Shown here one piece after another: positions 172 through 28,914 of a stretch of DNA of 48,570 nucleotides. The position numbers and the translations under genes were made by a program. The notes beneath the pieces were generated by a model. The model ran no database searches. It saw only the letters and a list, made by a program, of their open reading frames with translations, and was not told the DNA's origin. Numbering within the stretch: the stretch's first letter is position 1; the number at the start of each line of letters is the position of its first letter. Source of the DNA: Catajapyx aquilonaris (lineage: Eukaryota); NCBI GenBank assembly GCA_000934665.2, contig JYFJ02002947.1:1-48570 (forward strand), given 5' to 3'.

Positions 172-243
172 CCTACAAATACTAATAATTATTTGTTGCA
201 TGATCTCAGTCCTTAAAATGATCTTAGTTATGTTCCGACACAG

Positions 244-3200
244 CATCCGGCTCAGAGTGCCCAAGTAATTGGGTTTCACACTTAGATTCATGCTACATGA
301 CTTCGAAAGAAAAAGCATCTTGGCATGAAGCTAGAGACAACTGTAAGGAACAAGATCCAAGAGCAAATCTGATCAGCATCCACAGCCAGAAGGAACTGAC
401 TTATCTCGCAGGTATTTACAAGTGAATCTGCATAATGTTCAAGTACTTATCTGCCTCACATGCACAATAATTATAGTATACAATATGTAAGCTGCAGAGA
501 AACCATGTTGATCTGTCTGCAATAATTATTTTCCAGAACAAATGTTTTGGGATATCTGGATAGGGTTGAACAATCTGAGATCTGAACCCAACAATAATTG
601 GTTATGGAGTGATTCATCCAGCATGAACTTCATCAACTGGCAAGTCGATAAGCCCAGCCAATCATCATCTGAAAATTGCGTTTACCTTGATGGCAGATAC
701 GAGAAGTGGTCCAATAGAAAATGCAGCGAAAAATTAAAATCTGTTTGCAAAGTTCGTACGGCAGGTATGATACTATAATATAGAAGTCGACTTGATAACA
801 AGTTATTGGCTCTTTTAAATAATTCCCATTAGACCCTTGCAAACCTGGATGGATATTTAATGAAGATTCGTGTTATTTCGTGTCTGAAGAACTACTGGAC
901 TGGAAAAAATCTCGAGAGTTGTGCAAATCAAAGGACAAGAAATCTGATTTAGTCAGTGTGCACAAGCTGTCTCAGCAATTGTTTCTGACCGGTATGTATT
1001 TTCTCCACAAGCATTATTTTTTTTCAATAACTGAACAGTACCACTGTATGTACGTTAGTAACTATTTTTTAGTATTAAAATCAATTTCCATTCTTTACAA
1101 TGTCTGAAACTGAATAATTCAGACCAGAACTTAACACGTCCATAATAATCCAACGTGCAGATGTAATATTTTCTGAAGTCTGGATCGGCATCACTTATTC
1201 ATCTGAAACAAAGAACTGGGTATGGATTGACACGACCTGGGACGAAACTGAAGTGACCTTTACAGCATGGCAGACAGATCCGGACAGTTCGATACAACAG
1301 TGTGTACAGCTTGCCTACGACGGTTATTGGAAACAACAAGTGTGCGAATCGAAATTACGATTCGCATGCAAATATCAGCCAGGTATGAAACATTTTTCCA
1401 GTATTGTCACAACCTGATGAGAACAATTATTATTCCGCAGATAAACTCATATGCAGCTCTGATGATTGGCTGTTTCACGAAGGGTATTGCTATTATATTT
1501 CAAATGAAAAGGTGACTTGGGAAGTGGCCAGACAGAGATGTACGGATATGAACTCTCATTTGATTAGTCTACACAGCTTTTCAGAGCAAGGCCTCATTAC
1601 TGGTAATAATATTATTATTAAGTCAACAATACTGCCGTCAGATGTGAGAAGACCGTAACTCAATGTCCACTTCCCCTTGCGGCGAGAAAAAAAAGCAGTG
1701 GTACCAAAAGCACCCAACAGGTGGAGTTGGGGTGCCGTTCCTTTTTCCCCCTTCCCCCAACGCCACCTCTTGGATGCTTTCGGTAACACTTGCTTTCTTT
1801 TCTCGCCGCAAGGGAAGTGGATATTGAGTTACGGTCCTCTCACATCTGACGGCAGAATAGCTGCACAAATTGACGCTTGAAACACATGTTGCAGATAAAC
1901 TATTTCCAAGCTTGTGGATTGGTCTCAACAATTTAGAAAATAAAGGACATTGGGAATGGAGTGATGGAACTTCAGCCCATGACTTTTTAAGCTGGAAACC
2001 AGGCCAGCGTGACTTAATTACAAGTGACAGCTGCGTCGAAACTTCAAAGTCTGGATGGAACAACTTGTCATGCAATAAGAAATTGCATTTTGCATGCAAA
2101 TCCGAGCCAGGTATATATACCGCAACTGAATAATATTGCGGCAATATATTTATTCATATAATAATTAATATTGCAGATCCATGTCCTGTTGGCTGGCATC
2201 ACATGCTGAAAAACTGTTACTTCATATCTGATCGCAAAGCTACGTGGCAAGAAGCATTGCAAATTTGCAAAGAAACAGAGCAAGCCAACCTGGTCACAAT
2301 TCGCAACTCTGAAGAGAACATACACATTAGCAGTAAATTTATCAAATAATTGCATAGTATGTCGTATAGTGGGTCGTAATGTTTCTTGTGGATTCGCAGC
2401 CAAGTTTCTGAGGCACAAAGTTTGGATTGGCTTAACAAAGTCGTCTGGAACATGGCAATGGGCTGATGGAGATTCACTGTTGATGTATTTAAACTGGAGA
2501 GAAAGCCAAGCAAATGGTCCTGGACGTGAATGTGCCGGGCTTGTAAATTCAGGAGAATACAGCATCAGAGACGTGCAATGGGAAAAACTGATTTGCAATG
2601 AGAGAAACCACTTTGCATGCGAATTTAAAGCAGGTGTACACAACAAGAAACGAAATTCGCACATTTCTCTATGTATCTCCCCAACTAACCAATTCGTGTG
2701 GTAGTAGATTTTTCAGATTTGTGTCCTGAAGGATGGAATTATAAAGACAGAAGCTGTTACTACCTGTCAACTTACAAAGTCTCGTGGTATTCAGCCGTGG
2801 AAATTTGCAAACAGCTGGATAAACGGGCATCTCTTGTAACTGTTGACAATCAAGAGGAGGATAATTACTTTGCTGGTAACGCATTTAGCAACTTCTATAA
2901 ATCTAACATTAGGTCTATACATAAGAGGCGCAAACATTCGATTTCCGCGTCTCTCTGTTTGGGGCGTTGCCGAGGCTGGCGGCCATTTTGAAGTGTGGGC
3001 AACGCCAACGATGTATAAATAGGGTACAGGCAAAAATAGGGTCCGCCATCTTTGATTCGCGCGTGTTCTTGCCGTGTAGTTGCCATGGCCGCCAAAACCA
3101 TCAAAGATGGCGGACCATATTTTTGCCTGTATTTATACTTCGTTGGAGTTGCCCCCACTTCAAAATGGCCGCCATCCTTGGCAACGGCACCAAACAGAGA

Positions 3201-6200
3201 GACGCGAACATCAAAGGCGCCGACAGAAGTTTGCGCCTCTTAATTTATGCTCCCTGATTAGGTCCTGACCTGTCCTGACCTTCCTTTTTTAAGTAGTTGT
3301 TGACGTGCCACAATTATTCTTTCAGAAAAGATGATTGTGAGGATATGGATCGGATTCAATTCTCTGAAGGAAAATGGGAAATGGAAATGGAGCGATTGGT
3401 CCAGAGTGACATACCACAGATGGGATGATGGCAATCCAACAAATTCGGAATCAGAAAAATGCGCAAACCTCAACATAAATGCAGGAGGTGTCTGGAACGC
3501 TCAGGACTGCAATGAGAAAATGCATTTCATGTGCAAGCTCTCACCTTGTAAGTTATTTTGAATTTGATGACGTATGAATTATGAATCAATAAGTTTTCGT
3601 CACCAGACAAGAAATCGCAAGATGTTTCACCCCGTAACATGTGCTCTCCTGTACCAAAGATTGAAGGTGTCGATGTAAAATGCGTTTTGCAAGATCAGAC
3701 TCCAGCATCATGCAGTGATTGGCTTCCTCCTTTCGCCCAGGTCCATTGTTCTTGCTCAAATTTTTACGAGAAAACCAGACATGTAACGACACACTCAATG
3801 ACTTGCCTTGAGGAAGGTGTTTGGTCCGATTTTCCTGGACTTGACTGCAAACCTGGTAAGTTTCTTCCGAGTCGTAAAGACTGAGTTTTTAATCCATTTA
3901 TGGTCTCTTTCAGCATGTGGAACTTCAAACTTATCATCACAAGAATCGGTTAGACATCGATTGATTTATCGGGGATGGAAAGCAGAGAAAGGACAATGGC
4001 CATGGCACGCTGGTATTTACATGAATTCGGTGTCAAATGGCACCCAAGCAGCATGTGGAGGTTCACTCATTTCTCCTAGAGCTGTTCTTACTGGTGAGTT
4101 TATATCGACATGGTCACAATACCAGAGAGCGAAGTGAGGGTTTTTCTAATTATTAAAAAAAAAATTAAATTCAATAATTTTCCATCCTAGCTGGACATTG
4201 CCTCTTGATGGAACATGCTCCAGTCATAATTGAGGAAAAAGATAGCAAAGTGTTTTTAGGAAAATACAACAACAAGGTGACTGAAAATATCGAAGGAGTG
4301 CAATCAAGAGAGGTAAAAAAAATCATATAATATTATTTTAACATTGAAAAAAAATGCATTAATTTTCACAGGTCGAAAAATTTTACCTCCATTACAACTA
4401 TGACGATAAGAGTTTGGCAGCAGACTTGGCGATTATAGTGTTGAAGAATGATGTGAAAACGACAGAACATGTTCGACCCGTATGTTATCCGAAAGCTCAA
4501 AGGCATTCTTTGGCCCACCCAGGAAAAGTCGGTGTGGTAATTACAATTTCATGTAGTTCAATGCACTGCCAATTATGGGTAAAGAGAAGCAACTACTATT
4601 ACTTGTCGTTTTTCAGCGCAATCCTTTCAAACTACCCTAATTAATTTTCCACTTGTAGATTGTGGGCTGGGGAAGAGACGAGGATGATCAATACCCTAAC
4701 GATTTACGAATCGCAACATTTCCTGTGGTCTCAAGTGACAAATGTGCTGATGACTTTGGGTTGACGTCAAACATGGCTGCAAACACAGTTTGCGTCGGAT
4801 ATAAAAACGGTATGTTGCATTGCAAATATTTTATAAAAAAATTATATGCATATTATATCGCAGGGACAAGTATTTGCTCGGGAGATAGTGGCGGAGGATT
4901 GTTTCTACCATCAGCTCGAAACAGATGGCAAGTAGAAGGTGTGGCCAGCTTTGGAAAGCCAGGAGAAACCTCCAGTTGCGATGGAAAAGCTTACAATGTA
5001 CTTACACGAGTAAGTAGTTACATACACTGGATAGAAGGAGTACTTGCAGAATCTGAAAAAGACATTCCAAGTAAGTACTCTCCACATTATTTTGTCTATT
5101 GTTGACATTACAACTGGTCATTTTCAGGACATTACCCGGACATGAACTCAAGGCCTATACCTACTCAGCCTAGAAAAGATGCCAGCAACACCACGACTAC
5201 AGTAACAACAGGCGATGAAGGTAATTGTTACAATAAGCACGCTCAATCATTGTTCATCAGTCGCATTTCGCTTTACATCCAGTTTTCTTTGAATGTCCTG
5301 AACATTGGACATCAAATGGCAACTACTGCTTTTACACGTCTGGGTACGCAGAAACCTGGGAAAATTCGCGAAAGGCATGCAAAAATCTTCATTCAGATTC
5401 TGATCTGGTCAGTCTTCACAACATCGAGGATCAGTCATTCCTAACAGGTATGCATATATACCCATTTGATAAAATGTGGATTTTTGAATATATTGCACAT
5501 TTTTTCAGACGGAATGAGCTGGCAGTATTGGGTCGGATTGCATGTAAACGATGAAGAAATGTGGATATGGAGCGACGGAACAGAGTTTGATTACGATGGA
5601 TTCAGACACAACGAGACTGTTCACATAGAGACAGAAAGATGCGCTGAACTAATGTTTCATTACGAGGAAAGCGAACCCACTGTTATTCTAAACAGTGACG
5701 TATGCTTCAGATCCAAAAATTTCATATGCAAGATGAAATCATGTAAGCCCACAGTGTAATCATACAAAAAGTATGTTCCTAATGCACATTTTTGCAGCAT
5801 CTTGTCCTGACGGCTGGTTACATCGTAATGGATTCTGCTACTTTGTATCTAAACTCAAGATGTCTTGGAATGAAAGCAGACTGTACTGTTTGGAAAAAGA
5901 AGCAGACTTGTTAAGTTACCACAGTGCAAACGAATCTGAATTTTTTATCGGTAAGTTTAACACATTTTTTTAAAGCTAACTAATTGCGTTTAACATGTTG
6001 AGGATTATTTTCAGACAAAATGAGCTGGCAGACATGGACCGGATTGCATCTGGAAGATGACAGGTGGCAGTGGTCTGATGGGACACAAGTTGACCTCTTT
6101 CAATGGGCCGAATATGAACCGAACAATTTGAGCAGTGAAAAATGCATTGAACTAACTATTTTGAATGAATGGTACAACCTCGATTGCACTTGGCGACTTC

Positions 6201-6238
6201 CATTCACCTGTAAATTATTGCGAAAATTAGTATCATAG
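244..6238 (+). CDS. Multi-exon lectin-protease A (5' end outside window): at least 5 CTLDs, 6-Cys Sushi/Wonton-like domain, active serine protease, Thr-rich linker, 2 CTLDs
   Basis: CTLD exon pairs (CP..W....CY / WIGL...W.WSDG...C...W....C) at about 244-764, 832-1383, 1441-2110, 2177-2633 and 2717-3547. Sushi-like exon at about 3607-3855. Protease at about 3914-5070 with RHRL|IYRG, LTAGHC, ADLAII and TSICSGDSGG. Linker 5128-5221; CTLDs at about 5283-5742 and 5797-6238, ending in TAG. GT-AG junctions are phase-compatible. Confidence 0.88.
1632..1855. mobile_element. Fold-back MITE (family B), intronic
   Basis: About 100-bp imperfect inverted arms, ctgccgtcagatgtgaga... and ...tctcacatctgacggcag, flanked by the direct repeat AATA (1628-1631 and 1856-1859). 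Confidence 0.8.
2915..3256. mobile_element. MITE family A, copy 2
   Basis: Long inverted arms; right end is gctccctg; flanked by attaggt(c) on both sides; small deletion in the left terminus. Confidence 0.88.
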
Positions 6239-6976: not shown

Positions 6977-9900
6977 ATGTTTTTTTTTATCAAGCTTCTA
7001 CAGCAGCCATTTTTCAGTGTTCTCGACTGTTTCGGTATGATGTGGTCATTGCTGATCGTCTGCGCAACTGGTAAGTTTTAGGAGTTACTAGTGTACGCGG
7101 AGTGTGAAAAAGAGTGAGATCATTTTTCATTATTTCAGCCAGTGTTTTGTCAACCTCAATTCCGTGTAAATTCAACCAATATTTCTGTCGAAATGGCGAA
7201 AATTGTGTGCACTGTGGGTTACGCGGCTTGTCTAAGCGTTCCACAGCAGACTTGACATACTGCAGACTTCCAAGCACCAAGACTTATGGAGAGTACGAAC
7301 TATCAATGTGCCTCAATCCGGATACCAATTTTCATCCAGCATGTTTCGCAACTGAAAGTCGATATCGACACATGCCTGATGGGATGACAGTCACTTTTGT
7401 GTGCGCAGACGGAAGTGAGGTCGTATCGAAATGCTCTGCGTCTCTGTGGAAACCTGAACCGCCCAGATGTAAAGAAAAAATTGTCACCACCACAATGGCC
7501 ATACCGGACACTACAGTTTCGACAGTTCCTCCTCGAATAATAATTAAAGATCCAACACATGTTGTTAAGCGATTCTGCCCAAAGGACTGGGAACATTATG
7601 AAGGATTCTGCTACCACACATCAGAAGACAGGTATTCGTGGCAATCAGCAAGACAAGCCTGCAAAGTAATTGATAAGAGAGCAGATTTGGTCAGTCTTCA
7701 CGATGCACACGAGCAAAGATACGTTGCAGGTAATAATTTACAAAACAATGTCACGAATGAAACTTTTTTTTTCTGATTTGTTTTTATAGAAAAAATGTTT
7801 TGGCAACTGTGGATTGGATATAGCAACAGTGAAGGCGGAAATTGGAGATGGAGCGACATGTCAGACAACGACTTTAATATTGTCGAAGGCAGTTCGACCA
7901 ACGAAGAAAATCGTTGCGCAGAGATACGTCACAACGAGAAGTGGTACAGCCGAAACTGTACTGATCATCTACCTTACGTTTGCAAATTAAATTCAGGTAA
8001 GTACGACTTTTTTATTCCTGTAAAGAGTTGTGTGCACCATATCTTTTATTTTGTTAATTATAATCGTCATGTTTTCAGAGCCAGGAGAAGGATGTCCTGA
8101 GAATTGGATATCCTACCTGGATTCTTGCTACAAGACATCTAAGGACAGGACATCTTGGCAGATCGCCAGGGAAAACTGCAAAGAACTTGATCCCAGAGCA
8201 GATCTGGTCAGCATCCACACACAGGATGAACTGACTTATCTTGCAGACCAAATGTTTTGGGAGATTTGGCTTGGATTGAACAACCTGAGATCTGAAGACA
8301 TGTGGGAATGGAGCGACGCAACTAGCATGAACTACATCAACTGGCAAGTAGGAAAGCCCAGCCAATCGTCGTCTGACAATTGTGTTCACATGAAGCAGAG
8401 TGAAATGTGGTCCAACAGGAAATGCAGCGACGAGTTAAAATTCATTTGCAAAGCCAGAGCTGCAGGTATATAGTCTAATTATTATTGTGTTGCTAATTTC
8501 TTTTCACTGCTTAAATATTTTCTTCTAGATCCGTGCAAACCAGGTTGGATTTTTCACGAGGATTCCTGCTACTTCGTCTCAGAAGACAGGGTGTCATGGA
8601 AAGAAGCTCGAGAGCTCTGCAAGTCAAAGGACAAGAAGTCGGATTTGGTCAGCGTGCACAAACTATCGCAACAAACATTTTTGACTGGTAATGTATCTGC
8701 TTGAGAGAAGAAGCAAAATTTTTATTATCATCATCATTACAGATGCCATATTTTGGGAGACGTGGATTGGAATCAAATATTCATCCGAATCGAGGCAGTG
8801 GCATTGGAGCGACAAGACCAGGATGAACTTTATGCAGTGGACCAGAAATTCGGATATTCCTCGAGAAACATGCGCTGCACTAGTCCACGCTGATGTTTGG
8901 AGGCAACGTAACTGCAACACAAAACTTCCTTACGTCTGCAAATACCAACCAGGCAGGAGAATTTATAATATGTAAATAATCTCTAGCTCGTTTTAATTTT
9001 TGACATTGCTTTCTTTGGCTTCATCAGATGTCCCAAAATGTAACTCAGGATGGCAGTTTCACTTGGGATATTGTTATTACGTCGCCAGAGAACAAGTGAC
9101 TTGGGAAGTGGCCAGAAAGAAATGCCTGGATTTGAATTCGGACTTGGTTAGTCTTCACAGCTTTAGAGAGCAGCAGTACATAACTGGTATGACCTGTTTA
9201 ATCCATGTACACATATAGAAGAATCACTTTTTGCTATAGTCTAGCTGTTTAAAAGCTGTCTTTTTAAAATGTCTTTACAAGCACCACAAAATAATAGATA
9301 ATTTCAATACCTGCACTCTACATGTACAGACAAATTGTTTGCGCGTGTTTGGATCGGTCTGAACAACTTGGAAAAGAAAGGCTTTTGGGAATGGAGCGAC
9401 GACACTTCAGCAAACTTCATAAACTGGAAGCAAGACGAACCAAATCTGATAGAGCAGGACAACTGTGTTGAAACTTCAAACACCGGATATTGGAACAACG
9501 TCGATTGCGATATTGAATTGAATTTTGTCTGCAAAGTTGTTCCAGGTATAATCCGCACTCACAAATTTGTTTGCAAAATAAACAATTATTATTTTTTTTG
9601 TTCCAGATCCATGCCCAGTAGGCTGGCATTACCTGTTGAACAATTGCTATTACATATCAGATTTGATAGCAACGTGGCAAGAAGCTTCGCAAATTTGCAA
9701 GGAAATTGAGCAGGCAAATCTACTAACCATACATAGCGCTGAAGAGAATCTACACATTAGCAGTATGAAATTTGCAAAAAAATTTACAGCATATTGCAAA
9801 TTTTTTCCTAAGCTAAATTTTTCCTCACCGAAACGTACTTCTGGTGGGAATAATTGAACTAATTATGTTAATTTTTGGGGGGGCTTTTCAGGAAAGTTTC

Positions 9901-12900
9901 TGCGACAAAAAGTGTGGATTGGATTATCCAAAACGTCTGGAATATGGGAATGGAATGATGGCGGTATGGCTTTTAAGTTTAACTGGAGACAAAACAGCAC
10001 AGAAGATCCTCACAACATGTGTGTTGGTCTTGTACATTCGGGAGAGTACACATTCAGAGACGTGAAGTGGGAAAAGCTTAATTGCTACGAGAGAAATTAC
10101 TTCGCCTGCAAGTTAAAAACAGGTATGAATATATTTGGCACAATTAATTATTCATTATGATATCAATCACTCGCATGTCCATAAATTCATGTAAATTACT
10201 AAAGCACTTCAATTCTTATTTTTTAAATTATTTTTCACACATTGCACTTTACAGATTTTTCAGATCTGTGTCCCGAAGGATGGCAATACGAAGATGAAAT
10301 ATGCTACTACCTTTCAACCTACGAAGCCTCATGGTATTCAGCTGTCGAAGTGTGCAAGCAGCTTGACACTCGAGCTTCTCTGATAACTATTGATAGCCAA
10401 TCTGAAGAGAATTATATTGCTGGTAAATACGCATAATGGACCCGAAAAAAATGGATTTTAATTATTTATATGAAACATTATTTGCAGACAAGATGATTGT
10501 GAGGATATGGACCGGATTCAACTCTCTGAAGGAAAATGGGAAGTGGAAATGGAGCGACGGGTCAAGGGTCACATACCACAGATGGGATGAGGACAATCCG
10601 ACAAATTCAGATTCAGAAAGATGCGCAAACCTCAATATCAATGCAGGAGGAGTCTGGAACACTCAGGACTGCAAGGAGGAAATACACTTCATGTGCAAAC
10701 TCTCACTCGGTAAGAACACTAACAGCTCATTTAACAAGTAGTGTCACCAGGGAGCATATACTATACATAAGAGGCGCAAACAATCGATTTCCGCGTCTCT
10801 CTGTTTATGGCGTTGCCAAGGATGGCGGCCATTTTGAAGTGTGGGGACCGCCAACGAGGTATAAGTAGGGTACAGGCAAAAATATGGTCCGCCATCTTTG
10901 ATTCGCTCGTGTTCTTGCTTTGTAGTTGCCATGGCCACCAAAAGATGGCGGACGCTATTTTTGCCAGTACCCTATTTATACCACGTTGGCGTTCCCCACA
11001 CTTCAAAATGGCCGCCATCCTTGGCAACGGCCCCCAAAAAGAGAGACGCGAACATCAAAGGTGCCGACAGAAGTTTGCGCCTATTATGTAGTATATGCTC
11101 CCTGATGTGTCACCATGCAATGTGATCTCGTATAATAGTAGGCGATGTAAGTGTCGTAGGCTGTATCCGCTCATTTCTGTCCACAGACGACAAGAAATCG
11201 CAGGATCTTCTACCAGCTAACTTATGTGCTCCTATACCAAAGGTTGAAGGAGTTGATGTCAAATGCGTGTTGAAAGACATGAACGGAAATCATGAGATTC
11301 GGTTGCCATGCACCGATTGGCAACCTCCTTTCACGCATGCCCAGTTCACGTGCTCGGATCTGTACGAAAAAGCCAGTCGTTGGATGACATACAACGTGAC
11401 TTGTATGGAGGAAGGAATCTGGTCAGATTATCCTGGACTTGACTGCAATCCAGGTATATAACATCAGTCGCAGGAAAAAGGAGTAAGGTAGCAGACCTGA
11501 AGCTCAAATTAGCCTCCAAGAAAGGATAGCTCTTGGAGGATATTTTTTGAGCTTCAGGTCTGCTACCTTACCTCATTTTCACGAATGTGCAGTACAGTTT
11601 ATTGTTATGTTACTTTCAGTGTGTGGAACTTCAAAGCTGCTTCAACCGTCGGTTCAACGCTTAATTCATAGAGGAAGAAAGGCGGTCAAAGGTCAATGGC
11701 CATGGCATGCTGGTCTTTACAGGACGAAGATGTCGACCAATATGTTGCACTATACATGCGGAGGATCTCTCATATCGCCTAGAGCTGTCCTTACAGGTAA
11801 CAAGTATATAGCCACTACAAAAATAATTCAGAAATTATTTTGCAAATAATTCATGTTAAATAGAGGAAAATGTCTAATTTATTTGACGTTAACTGCAATG
11901 TGACAAGTGCAAGTTGAATATGCAAAAAAAAATAGTGAATTTGTTATGAAATGGTGTCCAGCTTATAGTATGATCTGCAATAATATTGTTATTCTCAGCT
12001 GCACATTGCGTCATGAAGGAAAACGGTGCTAAAGTGATTGAAGAAAAGGAGATGAAAGTGTTCCTAGGCAAACACTACAAGCAATTAACCAGGAACGATC
12101 CAGATGTGCAATCAAGAGAGGTGATCATGTGTAATAATCTGCAGCATGAATCTGGAACATTCAAAATAAGAGGCGCAAACTTCTGTCGGCGCCTTTGATG
12201 TTCGCGTCTCTCTGTTTGGGGCCGTTGCCAAGGCTGGCGGTCGTTTTGAAGTGTGGGGAACGCCAACGAGGTATAAATAGGGTACAGGCAAAAATAGGGT
12301 CCGCCATCTTTGATGGGTTTGGAGGCCATGGCAACTACACGGCAAAAATACGCGCGAATCAAAGATGGCAGGCCCTATTTTTGCCTGTACCCTATTTATA
12401 CCTCGTTGGCGTTCCCCACACTTCAAAATGGTCGCCAGCCTTGGCAACAGGTAACAATACGCTCTAGGTTCTAACATAATTTGAACTACAGGTGGAGAAG
12501 ATTTACGTTCATTACAATTACAACGACGACACTTTGCAATCGGACCTGGCCCTTATCATATTGAAGTCTGAAGTCAAGATTACAGATAACATTAGGCCTA
12601 TATGCTACCCTAAGGACAAGAGCCATTCTTTGGTGTACCCAGGCAGAGTTGGAGTGGTATGATCATTATTAGGAAGTATTGTTGGGGGTCGTAATTAACA
12701 ATGCTTCGATTCTATCAGATATTAGGATGGGGAACTAACGAGCGAAACGTGTATCCGGACGATTTGTACATGGCTTCGTTCCCAGTGGCGTCGACAGATG
12801 AATGTGTCGAAGTGTATGGTCTTGGCGTTGAAATGAAAGACAGTACTTTCTGTGCTGGATACAGAAACGGTAAGTATACTTAATGTAATGTACTAACACA

Positions 12901-15900: not shown

Positions 15901-18900
15901 CATCTTGAGTATTGCGCAGAAATACTTGACAGCGGATACTGGATAAACACTGATTGCGACTATGAACGTTTCTCTGTCTGCAAATACTCTTCTGACAGTC
16001 ACTGTAAGAACACTACATAAAATAATATTAAGCATTATTTTACATGTGTTATGATCCTTTTTTTCCAGCCTTAACACCAAGTGTATATAAGTGCCCCAAG
16101 AATTGGCTACCGTTTGGAAATAGTTGCTTCTATCTTTCTGAGTACAAAGACAGCTGGAAAAATTCGCAAAGTGCATGCAAATCGTATCATCCAGACGCTG
16201 ATCTATTCAGCATGCACAATAGCCAAGAGCAATCGTTTGTGAATGGTAAGTACCATTGCATTTATAGTAGAGTACTACAGGGTGAGTCGGAACTGCAGCT
16301 AGTGTAGGCCTAATATATTTTTCTTTGCAGATATGATGTCATGGCAGTTTTGGGTGGGCTTGCACTTGCACGGTGATGACGATGAGTGGAAATGGAGTGA
16401 TGGGTCAAAGTTTGATTTCAAAAACTTCAGAAGCGACGAACCCAACAATTTGGACGAGGAGAAATGCGCCGAACTTATTTTCCATTTTGGCGAAAATAAT
16501 AGAGCCACTGTGGTACTGAACAACGACGTTTGCAAAAAGACCAAAAATTTCATATGCAAGAATAAATCATGTGAGTGCATCTCATTTTATGTGCTGTTTT
16601 TTTTAATTATCGGTATTTTATGTAATGTAATTAAACAGTGTCGTGTCCTGAGGGTTGGTTTTACCACATTGGAAACTGCTATCTGATATCCAAACTCAAA
16701 CTATCTTGGAAAGACAGCCATGATTTCTGCACTAGTTTTTCAAAGGGGACAGATCTGCTAAGTTACCACACTGCTGAAGAAGCTGACTTTTTCATTGGTA
16801 AGTTTAGCGAATTTTTTAGCAAACAATTTTTGCTGGCTTATTACTATCCAAAACTTTGATTTCCAGATAAAATGAGCTGGCAGGTGTGGACAGGACTACA
16901 TCTGAAACCTTACAGCAATGTTTGGCAATGGTCGGACGGAACTGAAGTCAACTTTCTTCAATGGAGATCAGGCGAACCGAACGACCTTCATCGCGAGAGA
17001 TGCACTGAACTGATCCAAGGAAATGTATGGAACAATCTTGATTGCACTTGGCTCCTTAGATTCGCCTGCAAACTTAACTTCCCAGGTTTGGCAATATTTT
17101 TGGCATAAAAACATTATGCAGACTAATTGTTTGACTATTTATCCTTATAGGTCCAACATCAGCAGCAAGTTCTCAAGGTAAATAAAATGCACTCTAAAAT
17201 ATACATTTGGTCATTCTCATCTGATGTAATTTCACAGAATCACAACAAGTGTGCCCGAATGGTTGGAAGATGATAAATGATGCTTGTTACTTCATGTCTG
17301 ACTACAAAGAGACTTGGATGATGGCACTAAAGGCATGTGAATCATCTCATGCAAATCTTCTCAGCTTGCACTCACAAGAAGAGCAAAATGAAATAACAGG
17401 TAAAGAAATCTGCACTTGAAAGAATCTCCCGAGCTCTTCAATTATTATATTCAAATTCTGATAAACATGATGAAGGAAGTAAAATATCATTCCTCCTTAC
17501 AAACAATCACAACAATGAATCTTTTTCAGGTCGTATGTTCACAAAAGTATGGATCGGATTGAACATATTAAATAATAGCGAAAATGAATGGCGATTTACC
17601 GACGGAACTGCGTTCAACTTCCTCAAATGGCCCGGGCCACATGAACCTAATTATTTGGACGACGAAAAGTGCGCTGGCCTCGTTCGTACTTATGGTGCAA
17701 AAGATGACGTGCACTTGTACAATGACAACTGCGACGAGAGAAGGAATTTCGCATGCAGAATGCAATCGAGTAAGTTTTTTTTTATCTCTCTCAAAATTAC
17801 GTACAAAAAATAATTCGAATATTTTTTTTAGTGTCCTGCCCAGAAGGTTGGGAATATTACCACGGATTCTGTTACTACATGTCAGACCACGAGTTGAACT
17901 GGCATGAAAGCAACGAATATTGTCGATCACTGGGCAAGGGGATTGAATTGGCCAGTTTTCACAGCGATACGGACATCAGATTTTACCATGGTACGTTTTA
18001 TGGAAAAATATCTCACGTCTAAGATTTTCTCTCAAGGACAAATTCGTGCAAAAATTTCAGCTTGAATATTTTGAACTGTTTGCAAATTTTTAAAGGCAAA
18101 ATGTACTGGCGAATTTGGCTGGGCTATCACATGCATCATGGTCGAGGCTGGAAATGGACAGACAAAACTTCAGACAACTTCACCTCCTGGGGCATTAGAG
18201 AGCCGAATAATCTTCCTAACGAAGAATGCGTCGAACTAACAACAGGAGGAACGTGGAACGATTTGAAATGCGACGACATGTTGCATTTTGTCTGCAAACG
18301 TGGCCTCACAGGTGGGTTTCATTGTTATAACATGTGATAATATCACATAAGAGGCGCAAACTTCCGTCAGCGCCATTGATTTCCGCGTCTCTCTGTTTGG
18401 GGCCGTTGCCAAGGCTGGCGACCATTTTGAAGTGGGGGCAACGCCAACGAGGTATGGGTACAGGCAAAAATAGGGTCCGCCATCTTTGAAGGTTTTGGCG
18501 GCCATGTCAAGAACACGCGCGAATCAAATATGGCGGACCCTATTTTTGCCTGTACCTACTACCTCGTTGGCGTGGCCCCCACTTCAAAATGGCAGGGCCA
18601 GCCTTGGCAACGCCCCAAACAGAGAGACACGGAAATCGAATGTTTGCGCCTCTTATGTAGTATATGCTCCCTGATAATATTTTAATTTAATTGATCGACA
18701 GGTAATGTAGGACGAACACGAATGAACGGGTTCGGAATCGAAGGTAATTATTACGCCATTTCCGCTTCATAATCCGATTCAAATATTAATCATATTTCAG
18801 ACAATGACATGGCCCAGACATGTCCATCTGACTGGAACTTTTATGGAAACTCTTGCTATCATATTTCGTATATGAAACTAAACTGGAAGTCTGCTGGAGC

Positions 18901-19844
18901 CACATGTTCTGCGATGGACCCGAGGGCAACACTGGCTACAATCAGAAATCAAGAAACGCAACAATATTTGCAAGGTTTCTGTTATTCAGACCTGAAAAAT
19001 ATCCTGCTCAAAATATTATATGGAAAATTATTTTAATTCCAGGCAAAATGTTTGATGACATGTGGCTTGGACTGTACTACGTAAATGTCGAAGAACAATG
19101 GGAATGGAGAGACAGAGCGAGACTCAATTTCACAAGATGGGCTTCAGGTGAGCCCAACAATGTGCACAGTGAACAATGCGGATTGTTACACGTGGCACAA
19201 ACTGACGAGACAACACTTGGAACCTACCAAAGCGCATCTTGTGCAGAAAAACATCGATTTGTGTGCAAAGCTTATACAGGTTGGTCTGCCTTAATAATTA
19301 ATAATATTAATAATTAATATTCTATGCCATTTACTGTTCAGACCAGTGTCCTGAAGGATGGGAAGTTTTTCATGGCAAATGTTACCTGATACCTGAACTG
19401 AAGGAGACTTGGGTCAATTCGAGGAGAAAATGCAGAAGTATTTACGAACCGTCTGAATTAGCTAGCATTCGCACTGAAGAAGAATTTGAATTTTTAATAG
19501 GTATGTCGCACTCTTTGATTATTTATTTAAAAAATGAAGTTGAATCATAGTGAACAAATTGGCCTATAAAATATGTTGCAGACAGAGTTTATTCTCACTC
19601 TTGGATCGGACTTGACTCGCACAAAGATCCAAGTACTTTCGAATGGATTGATGGAAATCCTGTTGAGTACACACAATGGCAGAGTCACGAACCAAACAAT
19701 TTGGAAGTGGAGAGATGTGTCGTGACAACTTCAGATGGCAAGTGGTACAACACCAAGTGCGACAATGAGAGGCACTTCATGTGCGAAATACCACTCAGAG
19801 AAATACCTAGAAGCGTGCAAAATATTCAGCCAACACCACCGTAA
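6977..19844 (+). CDS. Giant secreted lectin-protease B: signal peptide, LDLa-like remnant, Sushi, 6 CTLDs, 6-Cys Sushi/Wonton-like domain, active serine protease, Thr-rich linker, 10 CTLDs (roughly 2,700-2,800 aa)
   Basis: Exon 1 starts at ATG 6977 (or in-frame 7037, MMWSLLIVCAT) and ends at 7070. Exon 7139-7729 encodes CKFNQYFCRNGENCV, a Sushi domain and a CTLD half. CTLDs continue to 10709. Sushi-like exon at about 11187-11453. Protease at about 11620-13140 (VQRL|IHRG, LTAAHC, SDLALI, TSVCNGDSGGG). Thr linker 13200-13373, then ten more CTLDs 13577-19844 with two micro-exons (17151-17177, about 18701-18743). No internal stop or second signal peptide was found and no TM segment. Length is a hand estimate. 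Confidence 0.85.
10748..11104. mobile_element. MITE family A, copy 3 (full length)
   Basis: Termini cagggagcatatactatac... and ...gtatatgctccctg; flanking gtgtcac is repeated, with 2 extra nt on the right. Confidence 0.9.
11483..11571. mobile_element. Small hairpin element / MITE remnant, intronic
   Basis: Perfect 26-bp inverted arms (gtaaggtagcagacctgaagctcaaa / tttgagcttcaggtctgctaccttac) plus inner cctccaaga/tcttggagg; TA at both ends. Confidence 0.65.
12166..12448. mobile_element. MITE family A, copy 4 (both ends truncated, opposite orientation)
   Basis: Reverse-complement match to copy 2, including the internal spacer. Confidence 0.85.
15376..15728. mobile_element. MITE family A, copy 5 (full length, clean TSD)
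   Basis: Termini cagggagcatat...atatgctccctg with direct repeat gtcacac at 15369-15375 and 15729-15735. Confidence 0.92.
18344..18673. mobile_element. MITE family A, copy 6
   Basis: Family arms; right terminus gctccctg; flanking ataatat on both sides. Confidence 0.88.
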
Positions 19845-20513
19845 GCATTGTTGAAACATATAGTTACAGATGAGATATGTAAAGTGCTGCAAAAAAAAAC
19901 ACGTCAAAACCAGTGGGTTCGGTTATCCTCAGTACAAAATGAGGTGTCTGAAGCATATGGTCTGAACTGCGTACATGACACTGCATATGAGACGTGCTGG
20001 TGGTGCATGTGCAGCCCACCAGGAAAACAGACCACATTGTTGCAATCCTTGTTAGAAACAATTGTTGTGCTATAGAAGTGACTTTCATGTTGTTGTATTA
20101 CACTGGACTAATAAGTGCTGGTGTTAAATATCAAGCTAATGTGGGTTAAAATGTTTAGAAAGCAGCACTCAACAATAGAGGTTGGGAAATTACTGCAATC
20201 ATCATCATCATCTCCAGATTGAAGGGTGTGTATAGTAAGAACCAGGAGACAAAATGTGAGCTGAAAAGATGACTCTGTACTGTAAAATACATTAATTTTT
20301 GAAAAATTAAAATGCAATCATCCATCCTTTTTTTTCCTTTCCTAATATTGAATATGTATAACTGATTAATTGTCAGCGATTATAGTTTCATGAATTGAGA
20401 TATAGTTTGACCTGAATCTCGAGACAGAAAAAAAAGTGTACGGTAACCGCAATAATTCCGGTTATGCAACACGTATGGATAAACAGAATCAAATAAGCAG
20501 ACACTTTGCCAGC

Positions 20514-22929
20514 ATGTATCAAGCGTCTCTTACATTATTGTCAATCGTGTATATAGGGTAAGTACCACATTTTTTTTCAGTTTCTCCTACATTTACATCC
20601 AACAATGTTCCAGGTTGGTTCACGCCAGCTGCAAAGCACCCAAACCTTTGAAAGGAACAATAATAATATGCAACAATGGCCAGTCGTGTTTCGGCAATAA
20701 TTCACCTGAAGGAACAACAGTAGAGTACAAATGCGAGCGGTATTATAAAAACCCTACGCCATATGAAAACGTAAAAGTTTGCACCAAAACCGGACAGTGG
20801 TCAAGAAGATTATCGCCCTGCGTTCCAGGTAAGTTATATAGTTAAATTTATTTAAAAACCTGAACGCTTTAATGAGTCGTTTGGCACAGACTGCGGGATT
20901 GCAAATAGCCGAAATGTTTACGCCATACTAAATGGAAACGAAACTAGTCCCCATCGGTGGCCATGGCATGCTGGACTCTACATTTTCAATGGGAGGACTC
21001 AACCTTACTGTGGGGCCACACTAATTAACACCAACACACTCGTTACAGGTATAAAGTCTGATTAATTATTTTACTAGCCCAAACCGAGTGCGCACCCACA
21101 CTCGCGCAAGCTCAAGAGTCTATTGGCAACGTCGAAAACGCAGACCATTTTGTTCCCCCCACAAACGTAGCGTTGGAAATAAGTGCAGCGAGCTTATTGT
21201 TAATTCCAACAGTTAAAGCTGCGTGAACTGTGATGCGCACTCCGTTGCGCTCGTAAAAAAAAAAATCATATAATGTTAAACTACTCATGTTACAGCCGCT
21301 CATTGCGTTCAGGACGGATCATTTCTTTTGAAACCAGACCAAATCATCGTAGCTTTTGGAAAACATGCGTCTGAATTACGTCCAAGAGAAAAACAATCTC
21401 AAGAAGCGATAGTTGGACAAATATCAGTGCACGAAGAGTACGAAGAGTCCACATTAAACAATGATATCGCCTTGATATTTCTGAAAAATGAGGTTGAACT
21501 GACCAGCACTGTGAGGCCAGTGTGTTCTGGTCACTTGTATCCTGAGAAGGCTAATCATCATTTCGTTGAAGGAGTCAGAGGAATTGTAAGTTATTTAAAT
21601 CATATAAATAGGCCTAATGATGTTACTGACTATTATGCGATTCACGAGTCCTGGCCTGTTAGGCTCCTCCCCCGTCCTCCGCCCTCTGAAGGCGAGGTTG
21701 CCACGTCCGCGTCCGCCATGGCCTCACACGCCTGCCAGGACGAGGAAGGGGGAGAGCACTTGGCAGCAGTGGATCGCATTGAGGGGGACAACCAGGCCTG
21801 GAAATACGACGAACCACCTATCCCTTGTTGAGACCGAACCCCGCACCAATGGCTCCTACTCGCGAGAATCACGAGCATTCCAGGCCTGATTTCTTCCGCC
21901 GCTGACGTTGGGAGGTGGTGGGTGGAGCCTAACAGGCCAGGACTCGTGAATCGCATAATAGTACAGTAGTATTCAGGCGGTGTATCCTGCCCCATGTCGC
22001 CCCCAGCCGCAGCGGCACCACTTACACTTTACAATGCTAATTCCCATAACAAGTGCTGCCCCTAGAGACGGGGGGCGACATGGGGCAGGATACACCGCCT
22101 TAACACTAACTTTTTCTCCTATTTAAAGGTGGTTGGATGGGGTATTACAGACAACAACAGGCAAGCAGACACTCTACAAATGTCAGAACTACCTTTCGTT
22201 CCTAAGGATAAATGCAGCACGTATTTTGAGTCCACATATTTGCGTGAGACTAATTTCTGCGCGGGTTATTACACACGTAAGGTCACATTATTTTGTGTCT
22301 GTGTCAGAAAGCCAATATTGAAAAATTAGAGACTCTATATGGTTCAGTGCATTTCAGCAGATAACAGCAATGTTTGTGGAGGGGACAGCGGTGGTGGACT
22401 TTTCTTTCGCTCCAAGAATGTCGACGACAGGTGGTACCTTCAAGGTGTAACCAGCGCGACAAACAAGGACATGGCAACCAAGATGTGCATCCCAAAAGTC
22501 GCAATTTTCACTCGAATAGACAAGTACGCGCAATGGATCGAGAACAAAATATCAGAGCATAAGAACGGTATGTAAAAAAATAATCACAAAATTTAATCAT
22601 GGACTGAAAGTAACGAGCAAGCGAATAGTTATTAGTTCATTTTCTTTCAATAAATATTTTTTTCTTTTCTTTTTGACTTGGTACAAAATATTTCTTATTC
22701 CGCAGGAGAAGCTGTCGTTCCCCATATTTTTCCACCTTTCCCAGCTTTACCAACTCGTCCAACTCGACCAACTCGACCAACTCGCCCAACGCGTCCAACT
22801 CGACCAACGCGTCCAACTCGGCCAACTCTGCCAACTCGACCAACGCGTCCAACTCGGCCAACTCGTCCAACTCGACCAACGCGTCCAACTCTTCCAACCA
22901 GGCGACGTACCTGGGAATATACCTGGTAG
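20514..22929 (+). CDS. Secreted Sushi/Wonton-like + serine protease with a C-terminal (PTR)n tail
   Basis: Signal MYQASLTLLSIVYIG|LVHA (in-frame upstream ATG at 20475). 6-Cys Sushi exon 20614-20828. Protease motifs CG...NVYA|ILNG...WPWHAG, TAAHC, NDIAL and SNVCGGDSGGG. Last exon 22706-22929 carries PTR repeats. Confidence 0.87.
21074..21255 (-). mobile_element. Possible short Helitron-like insertion (3' end visible)
   Basis: On the - strand a cgagtg...cactcg hairpin lies a few nt before CTAG|T at 21074-21077. The segment is GC-richer than the host intron. The 5' TC end was not identified. Confidence 0.35.
21624..21968. mobile_element. MITE with ~40-bp TIRs, intronic
   Basis: Arms actattatgcgattcacgagtcctggcctgttaggctcc and ggagcctaacaggccaggactcgtgaatcgcataatagt; TA at the outer ends; GC-rich interior. 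Confidence 0.82.
21975..22100. mobile_element. MITE with 30-bp perfect TIRs, adjacent to the previous element
   Basis: Arms aggcggtgtatcctgccccatgtcgccccc and gggggcgacatggggcaggatacaccgcct. Confidence 0.8.
22750..22902 (+). repeat. Coding 9-bp tandem repeat, 17 units (15 PTR + 2 PTL)
   Basis: cca-act/acg/acc-cgN units read directly from the sequence. Confidence 0.9.
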
Positions 22930-23281
22930 TTGAGCCAAATTCATAAGACATGGAGATCCAACTGGGGAGCCCCCCCCCCCNAAAAAAAATGTTACCAAAA
23001 AACGACTCAATTGAAACACAAAAATTGTAATAAAAATCTCATCTGAATAATATGAAATAAACCTCATAACAAAACCTGCAGTCGTATCTATTTATCCTCC
23101 GTTTTTTTTGGGAGATATGACCTCCATAGCTAACCGCACTTCCTCTACCTTATTGCTGATAAAATATCCGGCCAAAGTTTCCTGTGTACACCTATAGAGT
23201 AAAGCCTATTTGCAAGTTTGGCATCTATTCTCTCACGAAGCTGCGTTCTTGGCGAATTTAGTCGTTTGCTCACCTGAAAAC

Positions 23282-25020
23282 ATGACGTACACGATAATGA
23301 TAACATGTCTTTTTCTGATTAGCATCTTCTTGCATCATGTTGGGTCCACTGAACACAGTAAGTACAGCCAGCAATAGCATAATCGGTAACACTCACTGCT
23401 ACCATTTAATATCTAATATCACCGGACTCATATGTGTGTGATAATGAATGGGTTTTCGTCCTACTCCAAAAGCTTTATCCACCAAATATATATTTTTTAA
23501 ATATTGACGAAATTATTTTACTAATGCGTCTGTCAGCATGTGGCAGAGCGACTTCTCTCAGCTTGTCACCACAACAAAATGTCATAGGGCTAGAAGTCCA
23601 AAAAGGACAGTGGCCTTGGAATGCTGCGATTTACGAGTTTGGAGAAGAAGACATTTCGGAATTTCCCATATGCGCAGGCACACTAATTGGAAGGAAGACA
23701 ATAATTACAGGTGAGCTAATAAATATTGCGTCTATAATGCAGGAATTATCAGAAACATTCTCAAGTATTTAGTGCACGTTTGTTGTACTGTAATATATGA
23801 AATAATTATTATTCCCAATTTCAGCTGCCCACTGTGTAATTAATCCTCTTGATGACTTCGTGTACCATCCGTCAACATTAGTCGTTGTTCTTGGTAAAGT
23901 TGATGAAAGTTATTACGAAGACGATCCTGAGGAGATTGAAGTAGACGTAAGTTCACACACATTTTATTACAAGTAAATACCGTTTCGTAGGTCTTGTATA
24001 TACTAAGGACTGCCTAAATGTTATTTAAAAAGTTTAATTAGCGAGTGGTTGCAGGTCAAAGAAATAGTTGTCCACGAAGGTTTTGACAGATCAACATTCA
24101 GGAACGGCATTGCTCTTTTGATCTTAAACAGCGAGGTTCAACTGGCTTACAACGTGATGCCAGCTTGTCTTCTACCAACTGGACGAAATACCGAAAATTA
24201 TGTGGTGAGTTCAAAGCCATGACAGGGTGTGACAGAAGTACAAACTTTTTTTCTCCTTGTCTAGACATCTGGTTGGAAAAAAACAAACGATATTCGAAGA
24301 CTTAGTTTGACATCAATTCCGAAAGTGTCTGTCGGAACTTGCATTTCGCATTTCCCCAACTCTGACAGACAATCTACTCTTTGTGCTGGATATGAAGGTG
24401 AGCTAATTACAGTAAGTACAGTACTAATTATTACAAGCCGACTTGTTACAGACAATGGCAGCAATTGTCTAGGAAGCAACGGAGGTGGATTGCTTCTAAA
24501 AATTGATAACAAATGGTACATTGGAGGTGTATCTAGCGGAACATCTAGAGATGATCTAAGCTGCATTCCTCGAATCAGTTTATTCACCAAAGTGAGCTCG
24601 TTTGGTGATTGGATCACTAACATAATGGCCAGAAACGGAGATAGTTCAGGTCAGTCTTAGAAAGAAAAATTTTTTTTTTGCGGAATTTCCTTGCAATAAA
24701 ATGTTACAGGTCAACCTTCAGGTGCAACTGAATCACCTGGATCTCGTGACAGGTATACTTTGTACTCTCCCCAATTTAAAATATAAGTAATAAAACTAAT
24801 TGCACATCCTATATACAGAGATGGAAAGTGTCACGACAACTTGTGCTGTATGAACATCCAAAATCATAACCCGGAGACTGGAGCAGGGTACTTGCAACAT
24901 GACCCCAGGTGTCTTAGAGGAGGCTTACATTGCATGGGTCTAACCGGATGTGTCCTGTGCTGGTGCAGTACTTCAGGTGGATTCAACTTAGGAAACAGAC
25001 AAGTTTGCAAAAGTTGCTAA
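23282..25020 (+). CDS. Secreted serine protease homologue (inactive) with a C-terminal 10-Cys domain
   Basis: Signal MTYTIMITCLFLISIFLHHVGS; KGQWPWNAAIY; TAAHC retained, but catalytic Asp is Gly (RNGIALL) and catalytic Ser is Asn (CLGSNGGG). Exons at about 24710-24752 and 24819-25020 give the Cys-rich tail ending in TAA at 25020. Confidence 0.82.
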
Positions 25021-25686: not shown

Positions 25687-27973
25687 ATGTATCTAACGTT
25701 GTGGGCATGTTTTATAGCATTATTAATTATTAGTACACAGGACGCTAATGGGTGAGTTACACTTCTATATATTAAAATTCCACTGATTTAATCACGAAAA
25801 GCTAACTTAAATTCGGCTCAGCTTATAAACAACTGGTAGAAAATTGTACTGTACCTAATTTTTAAATATGTTTTATTAATTATTTTTTTTGCACAATTTT
25901 ACTAATATTTTTTTTGGTCAGGTTTCAATATCGGTTTTTGCCTAAGCCGTCGGATATCGACAATTGTTGCACCAGCACTGTTACCACCACAACAAAGCAT
26001 CCTCCACCAGATGTGGATGGACATCGTAAGTAATATTTTAACATTAAAAAAAATAATAATGTAAATTAATATAATATAGAGAAAGTGGAAGTTGAAGGAT
26101 GTACAGTTGAATAACTGAATGATAATTATTGCAACGTGGGAAATTGGTCGTGAGATCTTCACATCTTAATTGTATGGACATACCGTGTGTGTCATAATTT
26201 ATCTCACATCTGTACTCCTTTAAAGTAGTGTTCGGTATGTTGTTGTTTACTCTAGCAACCAAAGATTCACAATAATTATTATGTAAGGTTCATTGCTTCT
26301 TATTGCAGCTTTTTATAAAGTATATAATTATATATTTTTACAGCTTGTGGTAGGTCTCGCATATACTTTTCGACGCAACGAAGGTTTCAAGAAATTGAGG
26401 CCGTGAAAGGTCAAATACCATGGCACGCTGCGATATACGAGTCTTTTAATGCTGGTGTTTTTGCCTCCAAGTTTCCAGTGTGTGCTGGAACTCTAATTGG
26501 AGCAAGAACAGTCGTTACTGGTAAGATTATTGCCATTGATGTATAATTACATTGTAATAGATACTGACTTAATAATTGTTTCCAGCTGCTAATTGCGTCT
26601 CTAAAGCAAGTCGGACGTATCAACCACAGTCTTTGATTGTTGCTCTAGGAAAGCTTGAATCCAACTATTACATCACTGAATCAAACATGCAGACTCTGAA
26701 CGTATGTATATCGTCCCTATAGCATATTGAGCCACTGATTTAACAATGAGTTACTCCGTACTAAAAAAAATAATTGCAGGTCGAAAAAATTGTCGTGCAC
26801 GACAGTTACGACATGTCAACTCTGCATAACAATATTGCTCTTCTGATTCTTAAAAATGCGGCTGACATATCGTACAACACTATGCCAGCATGTTTTCATT
26901 ACATTTCGTTCAATTCAATCCGTCCAAACATTAAAGATGGAAATCTTCGCGTGGTAAGTTTCGCTAATTAACTTTTACATCCACATCCAGCAACTTACTA
27001 TAGAATGTAGACACTTGTACGTAATTAATTAATTGTGTACACACACTTGGACATAATTGTGTACACACCGGGTACACACACTTGGACGTAATTAATTAAT
27101 TAATTGTTAGGCACACACTTGGACATAATTAATTGTAGACACTTGGACGTAATTAATTGTAGACACTTGGACGCATTTAATTAATTAATTGTAGACAATT
27201 AGATGTAAATTAATTAAATGCAAAATGATAGTTTACAATTTATATCCAAGAGTCTCTCCAATAGTAAGTCGTTGGATGTAGATTATTAGATAGATAATAA
27301 TTAATTAATTAATTAAGGTGTGTCAGATGTACTCTCCCAACTGTTTCACAGGTTCCTGGATGGGGTCAAAGGTCAGATAGCATCAACACTCAAACGCTGA
27401 AAATTACCACCGTGCCCTATGTGCCTAAGAAAAATTGCAATTTGCGTTTTCCAAATGCGGATAATGACACTACTTTTTGCGCCGGATATGAAGAAGGTAC
27501 AGAGATCTTCATATTAATTCGCCAATAAAATAATTTCTTTGAATAAATGTTTCTTTTGCAAAATTTTTCAGATAATGGAGAGTCTTGCTTGGGCGATCCA
27601 GGAGGAGGACTGGTTCTGAAGAAGAACATGTCGTTGGGAACCAAATGGTTCCTCCAAGGTGTCGCCAGCGGTACCAACTCAGACAACCTGACATGTGTGC
27701 CAAAAGTCAGCCTGTTCACCAAAATAAGCTCTTACTCTGACTGGATATTGCACACAATGGCACGCAACAATGATCGTGCTCCTGCCTGGTACAACCTTCC
27801 ACACGGTACTGCATTAAAGAAAATTATTTAATCAAGACATAATATCAGACACAATAGTTTGATTATTGTTTCTTGCAGAAAATATTCATATCGAAGGCAC
27901 TGCCGTAACAATCAAGCAGACGGCAAATGCAGACAGACGATGGCATGCACCAAGAACACGCTTCGGAGAGTAA
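25687..27973 (+). CDS. Secreted serine protease homologue (all three catalytic residues replaced)
   Basis: Signal MYLTLWACFIALLIISTQDANG; Thr/Pro-rich exon 25922-26025; KGQIPWHAAIY; TAANC (H>N), HNNIALL (D>N), CLGDPGGG (S>P). Last exon at about 27879-27973. Clear paralogue of the preceding gene. Confidence 0.82.
27005..27215. repeat. Degenerate intronic minisatellite (gtagacacttggacgtaattaatt-like)
   Basis: About 7-8 visible units of acacttggac plus taattaatt. Confidence 0.75.
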
Positions 27974-28860: not shown

Positions 28861-28879
28861 GTTGAATTACTCTCGGTTG

Positions 28880-28914
28880 TCAATGACTGCCGGACACTAC
28901 GTTTGGCTTATATA
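28880..28914 (-). promoter_or_regulatory. Putative TATA box plus Inr-like element of the OBP-like gene
   Basis: TATATAA on the - strand at 28914-28908, with a TCATT Inr-like motif about 25-30 nt downstream and ATG at 28860. Confidence 0.45.

Follow-up and report, generated by a model that had tools for sequence, protein, structure and literature searches.

Does a run of neighbouring protease genes form a self-contained proteolytic cascade, or does it mark one place in a much larger family? This question is raised by contig JYFJ02002947.1 of the Catajapyx aquilonaris assembly GCA_000934665.2, here called C1468, the whole of which (48,570 nucleotides) is the window analysed. Its plus strand carries five co-oriented genes, A to E, between 244, the first in-window exon base of A, and 27973, the stop of E, and the gaps between adjacent genes measure 350-800 nt. 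A sequence-only reading had proposed that they are a cascade expanded locally from one ancestor resembling the modular serine protease (ModSP) of insects. Our best reading of the window, made together with searches of the 286 Mb genome, is that the cluster brings together members of two sub-lineages within a family of ModSP/HP14-type proteases that has expanded genome-wide in this lineage. In the sub-lineage of A and B the LDLa docking repeats appear to have decayed, and A and B appear to have gained a second array of C-type lectin (CTL) domains, rich in EPN motifs, behind the protease.

Five genes within a large protease family

Hand-built models of the five genes have open frames throughout, and their introns are all GT-AG except for a single GC-AG donor in B at 8953. 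Alignment of the protease domains gives an H/D/S triad with Asp194 in A, B and C, H/G/N in D and N/N/P in E. The models and triads thus confirm that the plus strand holds two lectin-proteases, one Sushi-protease and two dead homologues, as the sequence-only reading had described. One N, at 22981 in the intergenic stretch between C and D, means that the adjacency of these two genes may cross an assembly join.

Related exon organisation and shared motifs had been cited as marks of the cluster. Four intron positions in the protease domain (phases 1, 0, 0, 1) are common to the genes, the second being absent in C, and the motifs are present with small departures (IPW instead of WPW in E, HRWPW in C and GGGM in B). 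However, exon templates taken from the cluster rebuilt 40 further domains elsewhere, so exon layout and motifs mark the family and not the cluster. A single protease exon of B has 37 matches in the genome, and the rebuilt family comprises at least 45 protease domains on 21 contigs or stretches, the five cluster genes included; a C130 model (unrelated), a C79 model and four loci without a first exon were left out of the family rows. Thirty of the 45 domains retain H/D/S with Asp194 and 15 are dead. CTL arrays lie upstream of 20, and 18 of these 20 are intact. Asp189 occurs in none of the 30 intact domains, two of which are gapped at this column.

The descent of the five domains was examined with named ModSP, GD and elastase sequences as outgroups, in trees of 85, 52 and 31 rows without near-duplicates, long branches and spare outgroups. 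In all three trees A is the sister of B (98/99) and the two join three genes of contig C2919 (95/85), and C is sister to a gene of contig C1574 (100/99), a pair that joins D and E (100/98). The monophyly that the sequence-only reading had set beforehand as its check is rejected by the approximately unbiased test (p-AU 7e-46), and a five-gene clade appears in 0% of 200 bootstrap trees. A nine-gene set consisting of the five, the C2919 trio and the C1574 gene is not rejected (p-AU 0.117) and is absent from the best tree. At the base of the tree is a polytomy that includes the insect ModSP clade and the GD clade. Protease identity between A/B and C/D/E is 28-35%, and that to insect ModSP or GD is not lower (29-40%). 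Within the second group, C is 80% identical to its sister gene, C1574_11827, and E is 46% identical to D.

On these trees C, D and E are a lectin-less sub-lineage adjoining that of A and B. Independent support for two sub-lineages comes from the Cys-rich tail of D (66 amino acids, 24819-25020, with nine invariant Cys), since tails of the same type, 44-56% identical, follow lectin-less protease genes on C1574, C2331 and C6305, and all carriers fall outside the A/B group. Searches with the D tail gave no Pfam family, no Atlas match and no PDB match under E 0.08, and its AlphaFold model has a pLDDT of 49.8. A different C-terminal appendage had been suggested for each gene, but A and B end in lectin arrays homologous to each other, and the tail of D recurs on three other contigs.

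Module architecture and descent of A and B

The canonical ModSP layout is LDLa, Sushi, Wonton and protease (PMC1761132), and it is by the first three of these modules that a ModSP is recognised (PMC7215089, PMC1761132). This layout survives in the genome at 71800-78400 of contig C275, in a canonical LDLa-type gene resembling ModSP, behind which come a second Wonton and a dead protease domain. The protease domain of this gene is 93% identical to the first of P0164, a protein of 1040 amino acids in which four LDLa-type repeats, identified by inspection, precede Sushi, Wonton and protease, with a second Wonton and a dead domain behind them. In the A/B line the lectin array appears to have been placed between the Sushi and Wonton modules of this layout.

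The first C2919 gene has the order LDLa (29.8 bits, cut-off 24.1), Sushi (33.3, cut-off 20.7), six CTL, Wonton and protease. Its LDLa and Sushi exon matches the last LDLa and the Sushi of P0164 (E 2e-8), and exon 2 of B is a decayed counterpart of the same exon (E 3e-9). Directly against P0164, exon 2 of B gives a weak match (E 0.028), and an Atlas search with it returned one match at 0.75, which serves as a lead only. LDLa repeats are thus represented by one intact copy in the C2919 paralogue and a decayed remnant in B, and are found in none of A, C, D and E. Ahead of the protease, B has both Sushi and Wonton with six CTL between them, A has Wonton only and C has one Sushi/Wonton. The signal peptides of D and E lead directly to the protease-like domain (in E through a 35-amino-acid linker, whose short second exon, 25922-26025, is a best-guess call), and Sushi, Wonton and clip are absent from both models. 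Of the single ModSP-like ancestor proposed earlier, the ModSP-like descent is supported by these C2919 modules and by the Wonton match of B (E 5e-7), but the local origin is not supported by the test of five-gene monophyly.

Gene A spans 244-6238 and has 21 exons and 1291 amino acids in the window, with the order five CTL, Wonton, intact protease, linker and two CTL; its 5′ end lies beyond the window. A signal exon and one CTL stand at the end of C2919 (about 22-640, minus strand), and this CTL and CTL1 of B are reciprocal best hits at 54% identity, so the C2919 end is probably the start of A and probably holds its signal peptide and first CTL. If C2919 and C1468 are joined in this way, the cluster would hold eight genes. 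The two tail CTLs of A are reciprocal best hits of CTL11 and CTL12 of B.

Gene B (7037-19844) is the largest of the five, with 42 exons and 2702 amino acids, and reads signal peptide, decayed LDLa, Sushi, six CTL, Wonton, intact protease, Thr linker and ten CTL. Its model and that of A were compared with transcript contigs of one public run (X1, kind unrecorded) over 4850-24849, a range outside which E lies and within which X1 contigs cover none of 6851-9518 and 23526-24849. Fifteen of the 21 joints are listed. Thirteen of these are GT-AG, every one of which coincides with a modelled intron of A or B, and the remaining two are non-canonical and match no modelled intron. Five introns from the last protease exon of A to its last exon are spliced in X1 contigs at an equal depth of 13.1, and eight introns in the tail of B, between 17085 and 19582, match spliced joints.

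The downstream limit of B is set by an X1 contig that runs through its stop into the 3′ untranslated region (UTR) and ends at 20323, 17 nt beyond the start of an ATTAAA at 20306, which argues that B is separate from C. Fusion of B to C as the main form is ruled out by this contig and by the signal exon that C owns. A phase-2 GTAAGC donor (19838-19846) overlaps the stop of B in frame with exon 2 of C (20614), and a minor B-to-C isoform may exist; no splice of this kind is among the 15 of 21 joints listed.

The ten-CTL tail of B could itself be a lectin-only gene or an alternative transcript beginning at an ATG at 13419, in which case the cluster would have six genes. The linker exon, if unspliced, runs into a stop, the ATG opens a short hydrophobic peptide phased with the next exon, and the protease-to-tail join is not among the joints listed. 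The best outside matches of the tail doublets are mostly lectin heads at the N-termini of C2146 and C4280 genes, a resemblance that suggests module capture. However, the spacing from stop to start would be only about 40 nt, where the other genes lie 350-800 nt apart. The homologous join of protease, linker and CTL in A is spliced, and the donor position and the start of the linker are common to A and B. We consider a separate tail gene quite unlikely, and treat B as one chain.

In the first C2919 gene, in the probable start of A and in B (7139-7260), the LDLa position is followed by dibasic sites of convertase type (RKRR, RIKR, SKR); the N-terminal piece may be trimmed at secretion.

Possible roles and known systems

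What might two such chains do? Among CTL domains, EPN is the mannose-type motif and QPD the galactose-type (PMC6070988). A pattern count over 82 CTL halves gave 31 EPN, 6 EPS, 4 QPD, 1 QPN, 1 EPD and 39 other, one EPN of B being missed by the pattern. EPN is present in nine of the 16 CTL domains of B (eight of ten in the tail and one of six at the N-terminus) and in one of the seven in-window CTL domains of A. The WND-like motif that goes with EPN or QPD in Ca2+-dependent sugar-binding lectins is an exact WND in one EPN domain of B and WNN in two. As to the proteases, the network of Drosophila consists of trypsin-like enzymes with one exception, ModSP, which prefers Leu at P1 (PMC10732536). 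Both A and B combine a Ser189 pocket with Leu at their own predicted activation sites, a combination that fits self-activation.

It is plausible that A and B are sensor-initiators, and we lean slightly towards a specific form of this proposal, in which they are parallel one-chain sensor-initiators and ModSP paralogues that carry a CTL array between Sushi and Wonton. The secreted zymogen would bind a repetitive glycan surface through its EPN lectins, and clustering on the glycan would lead to activation in trans by cleavage after Leu. With a lectin tail behind the catalytic domain, the active enzyme would stay tethered to its target, where it could cleave clip-domain proteases encoded elsewhere and so act towards Spaetzle or prophenoloxidase (PPO). 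A and B would be parallel triggers, not serial steps, and D and E would be retained non-catalytic partners or decoys.

A bolder version, which we offer tentatively and think doubtful, is that this deep-branching arthropod rebuilt the top of its Toll/melanisation cascade as at least 20 one-chain lectin initiators. Exchangeable CTL doublets would set specificity and replace betaGRP/GNBP docking, and B, as the most extreme case, would have captured the lectin heads of several other family members as its ten-domain tail, which would hold the active enzyme at the microbe. The GNBP markers CBM39 and GH16 had no match in the genome, in an exon-by-exon search of a fragmented assembly that does not show absence; the same kind of search found one locus for Amidase_2 (PGRP). 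In the insects studied so far, one set of proteins recognises (PGRP, GNBP/betaGRP) and another, ModSP, initiates. If the proposal is true, variable lectin arrays fused to an initiator would be an independent route, within the ModSP lineage, to the logic of Factor C or of MBL and MASP, and the surviving LDLa-Sushi-CTL6-Wonton-protease intermediate would show the route of assembly. The interest lies in this intermediate and in the lectin-flanked protease layout; the grouping of five genes is what tandem duplication gives.

Several observations weigh against the view of A and B as ModSP-derived sensors. The named ModSPs form a 100/100 clade that contains no gene of this genome, the LDLa-type gene of C275 included. 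The protease tree does not group the genes with insect ModSP, so the case for descent from ModSP is carried by the flanking modules. EPN and QPD are missing from most domains of the N-terminal arrays in A, B and the C2919 genes, and A, with its one EPN domain, may be a poor sugar sensor. The join between protease and tail in B is absent among the 15 of 21 X1 joints listed. The family counts are lower bounds that probably contain haplotype duplicates (for example C13367/C7123 and C8742/C4758), and the gene models off C1468 are automatic, with a few exon borders wrong. Finally, Aedes CLSP2, the sole experimentally tested lectin-protease fusion met in the literature consulted, dampens immunity (PMC4461313).

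Cascades of the known kind pass from a modular initiator through CLIPC to CLIPB proteases, and clip-domain serine protease homologues (SPHs) act as cofactors (PMC7215089). The tight, co-oriented arrangement with its short gaps might suggest a self-contained version, in which A and B sense, C amplifies and D and E serve as cofactors, all from one local ancestor. The nine-gene clade with the C2919 trio and the C1574 gene is not rejected, and active proteases are repeatedly found paired with dead homologues in the family, within one chain in P0164 and as interleaved genes on C4758, C2697 and C8742, so that a partner role for D and E is possible. However, the five-gene clade fails, A/B and C/D/E are far apart in sequence, and the nearest relative of C stands alone in the 25 kb of C1574 examined. 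A genome profile search gave 12 CLIP matches on 7 contigs, 17 Spaetzle matches on 8 and 25 Hemocyanin_M matches on 9, none of them on C1468, so the contig has no clip domain and no Spaetzle or PPO-family match, nor does it hold a trypsin-like member, and a self-contained cascade is not supported. C has the S1 pocket N189/T216/A226, a predicted activation site after Ala, not the Leu expected to be preferred by enzymes of the A/B type, and no clip domain, which speaks against an amplifier of the known kind; the absence of a clip domain from D and E likewise speaks against cofactors of the CLIPA type. With neither Asp189 nor a clip domain, A, B and C all belong to the initiator tier. A local cascade is therefore highly improbable.

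Two other uses were considered. The proteins could be glycan-targeted proteases of gut, saliva or venom, moulting fluid or egg, the last in a developmental cascade like that of GD. Chymotrypsin- or elastase-type pockets, Thr-rich linkers and large tandem expansions also fit secreted digestive or matrix enzymes, GD is as near as ModSP in the tree, and most N-terminal CTLs lack sugar motifs. However, the ModSP signature of Wonton, Sushi and LDLa has been kept (PMC7215089, PMC1761132), and large multi-domain zymogens are generally different from simple digestive proteases; we regard non-immune use as unlikely. Alternatively, the lectin tail might be cut off or mask microbial glycans, so that the cluster and its dead members would damp the cascade started by the canonical ModSP of C275. 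CLSP2 is cleaved upon infection, its freed lectin binds fungus and its silencing raises resistance (PMC4461313). The order of protease then CTL, behind an exposed linker, recurs in the tails of A and B, and one third of the family domains (15 of 45) are dead. Nevertheless, the triad and Asp194 are intact in 18 of the 20 members with lectin heads, and the CLSPs, at 429-450 amino acids with one CTL each, are reported from culicine mosquitoes only (PMC6070988), so a role as negative modulators seems very unlikely.

Among known systems, the insect ModSPs (Drosophila ModSP, Manduca HP14, Tenebrio MSP, Apis SP49 and Helicoverpa SP41) share with the present genes a Wonton immediately before a non-trypsin S1A protease (PMC1761132, PMC7215089), the Leu activation site (in A and B) and the Sushi with an LDLa remnant (at the N-terminus of B). 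They differ in having four to five LDLa repeats that dock betaGRP, where zero to one are found here. In the present genes CTL arrays stand before Wonton and behind the protease, the protease is 31-37% identical to named insect ModSP and falls outside that clade, and there are tens of paralogues, compared with one (Apis) to three (Helicoverpa) in the species described. Aedes CLSP1-3 (also CTLD-SP) resemble A and B in being secreted, with an elastase-like protease followed by a C-terminal CTL, and in switching between EPN and QPD among clustered paralogues, but they have one CTL and no N-terminal array, with no Sushi or Wonton described (PMC6070988). Set apart by architecture, A/B and the CLSPs would be of independent origin. 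Factor C of the horseshoe crab likewise unites microbial-pattern sensing and a protease zymogen in one chain with CCP modules and a CTL-like domain (PMC10672452). Its Cys-rich, EGF, five CCP, LCCL and single CTL modules are not those of the A/B models, lipopolysaccharide is bound by its N-terminal Cys/EGF/CCP part and not by a lectin array, and nothing is described behind its protease (PMC10672452).

GD belongs to the same broad protease group and is about as close as ModSP (30-40%), but its N-terminal domain is a different one (PF16030) and its members make up a separate clade (100/99). In the vertebrate lectin pathway of complement, clustering of the lectin MBL on glycans autoactivates the CCP-containing protease MASP; these are two separate proteins, whereas here the two functions would lie in one chain made of other modules.

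A CTL array on a Wonton-protease was not found in the literature, as judged from listings and the beginnings of abstracts, and supplementary domain tables of arthropod protease catalogues could hold one. A CTL profile matched none of 294 fetched proteins of at most 2000 amino acids (269 from the protease searches and 25 from a TGFBRAP1 search; best 120 of 411 and best 150 of 10,607 matches). The protein searches used single exons, and the larger set of 10,607 matches was crowded by multi-protease proteins. A search with CTL exons, a weak test, found the fused architecture in none of 30 scored candidates. The nearest known proteins are Aedes CLSP1-3 and Factor C, and the layout itself is unmatched in the literature found.

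Feature coordinates and neighbouring genes

Coordinates of the modules of A and B and of genes C, D and E in the window.
Feature	Positions	Strand	Description
A, N-terminal CTL x5	244..3547	+	10 phase-1 exons; sugar loops without EPN/QPD in all five
A, Wonton exon (six-Cys, Sushi-like)	3607..3855	+	homologous to Wonton exon of B; alone no Pfam match
A, serine protease	3914..5070	+	Pfam Trypsin; intact triad; S1 S189/G216/N226; predicted activation after Leu (HRL|IYRG)
A, Thr-rich linker and two tail CTL	5128..6238	+	EPN in second CTL
B, signal peptide, decayed LDLa, ModSP-type Sushi, Thr-rich linker, first half of CTL1	7037..7729	+	E 3e-9 to LDLa and Sushi exon of first C2919 gene
B, remainder of six N-terminal CTL	7790..10709	+	EPN 1/6; Pfam Lectin_C E 1e-17 for CTL2
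B, Wonton exon	11187..11453	+	matches residues 306-378 of P0052, a named modular serine protease (E 5e-7)
B, serine protease	11620..13140	+	intact triad; S1 S189/G216/S226; predicted activation after Leu (QRL|IHRG)
B, Thr-rich linker and ten tail CTL	13200..19844	+	five doublets; EPN 8/10
B, 3′ UTR	19845..20323	+	unbroken X1 contig 19580-20323
C	20514..22929	+	429 aa: signal peptide, Sushi/Wonton (Sushi 25 bits, cut-off 20.7), intact protease, Pro-Thr-Arg repeat tail
D	23282..25020	+	365 aa: signal peptide, then a dead protease domain (H retained, G in place of D, N in place of S) and the Cys-rich tail
E	25687..27973	+	369 aa: signal peptide and short linker exon, then a dead protease domain (N, N and P in place of H, D and S) and a short tail

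A palindromic element about 300 nt long, resembling a miniature inverted-repeat transposable element, occurs six times in introns of A and B (1-154, 2918-3215, 10756-11096, 12194-12448, 15388-15720 and 18374-18665), and the contig begins inside one of the copies. Elsewhere in the genome, C2210 carries at 9000-32000 six tandem dual-CTL proteases, four of them near-identical, in which the second CTL alternates between EPN and QPD.

Just downstream of E, a small multi-exon gene on the minus strand (28237-28900) has no Pfam match; by eye we take it to be odorant-binding-protein-like. Two copies resembling ribosomal protein L18A follow on the same strand, one at 30002-30538 (Pfam E 7e-21) and one at 34332-34875, which looks frameshifted and has no Pfam match on the frame tested; both are probably processed. 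A minus-strand open reading frame at 43792-45000, with no Pfam match on the frame tested, is presumably prolyl-tRNA synthetase-like, and tyrosine kinase domain exons lie at 42731-43770 on the minus strand (Pfam E 3e-39). On the plus strand, 37660-40870 holds a TGFBRAP1/Vps3-like gene, an exon of which reaches at most 51% identity, with a termite cluster, and 47-49% with locust and molluscs. The ModSP, CLIP and Spaetzle content of the genome points to an arthropod, and in a tree of this exon the gene falls outside the clade of the winged insects sampled.

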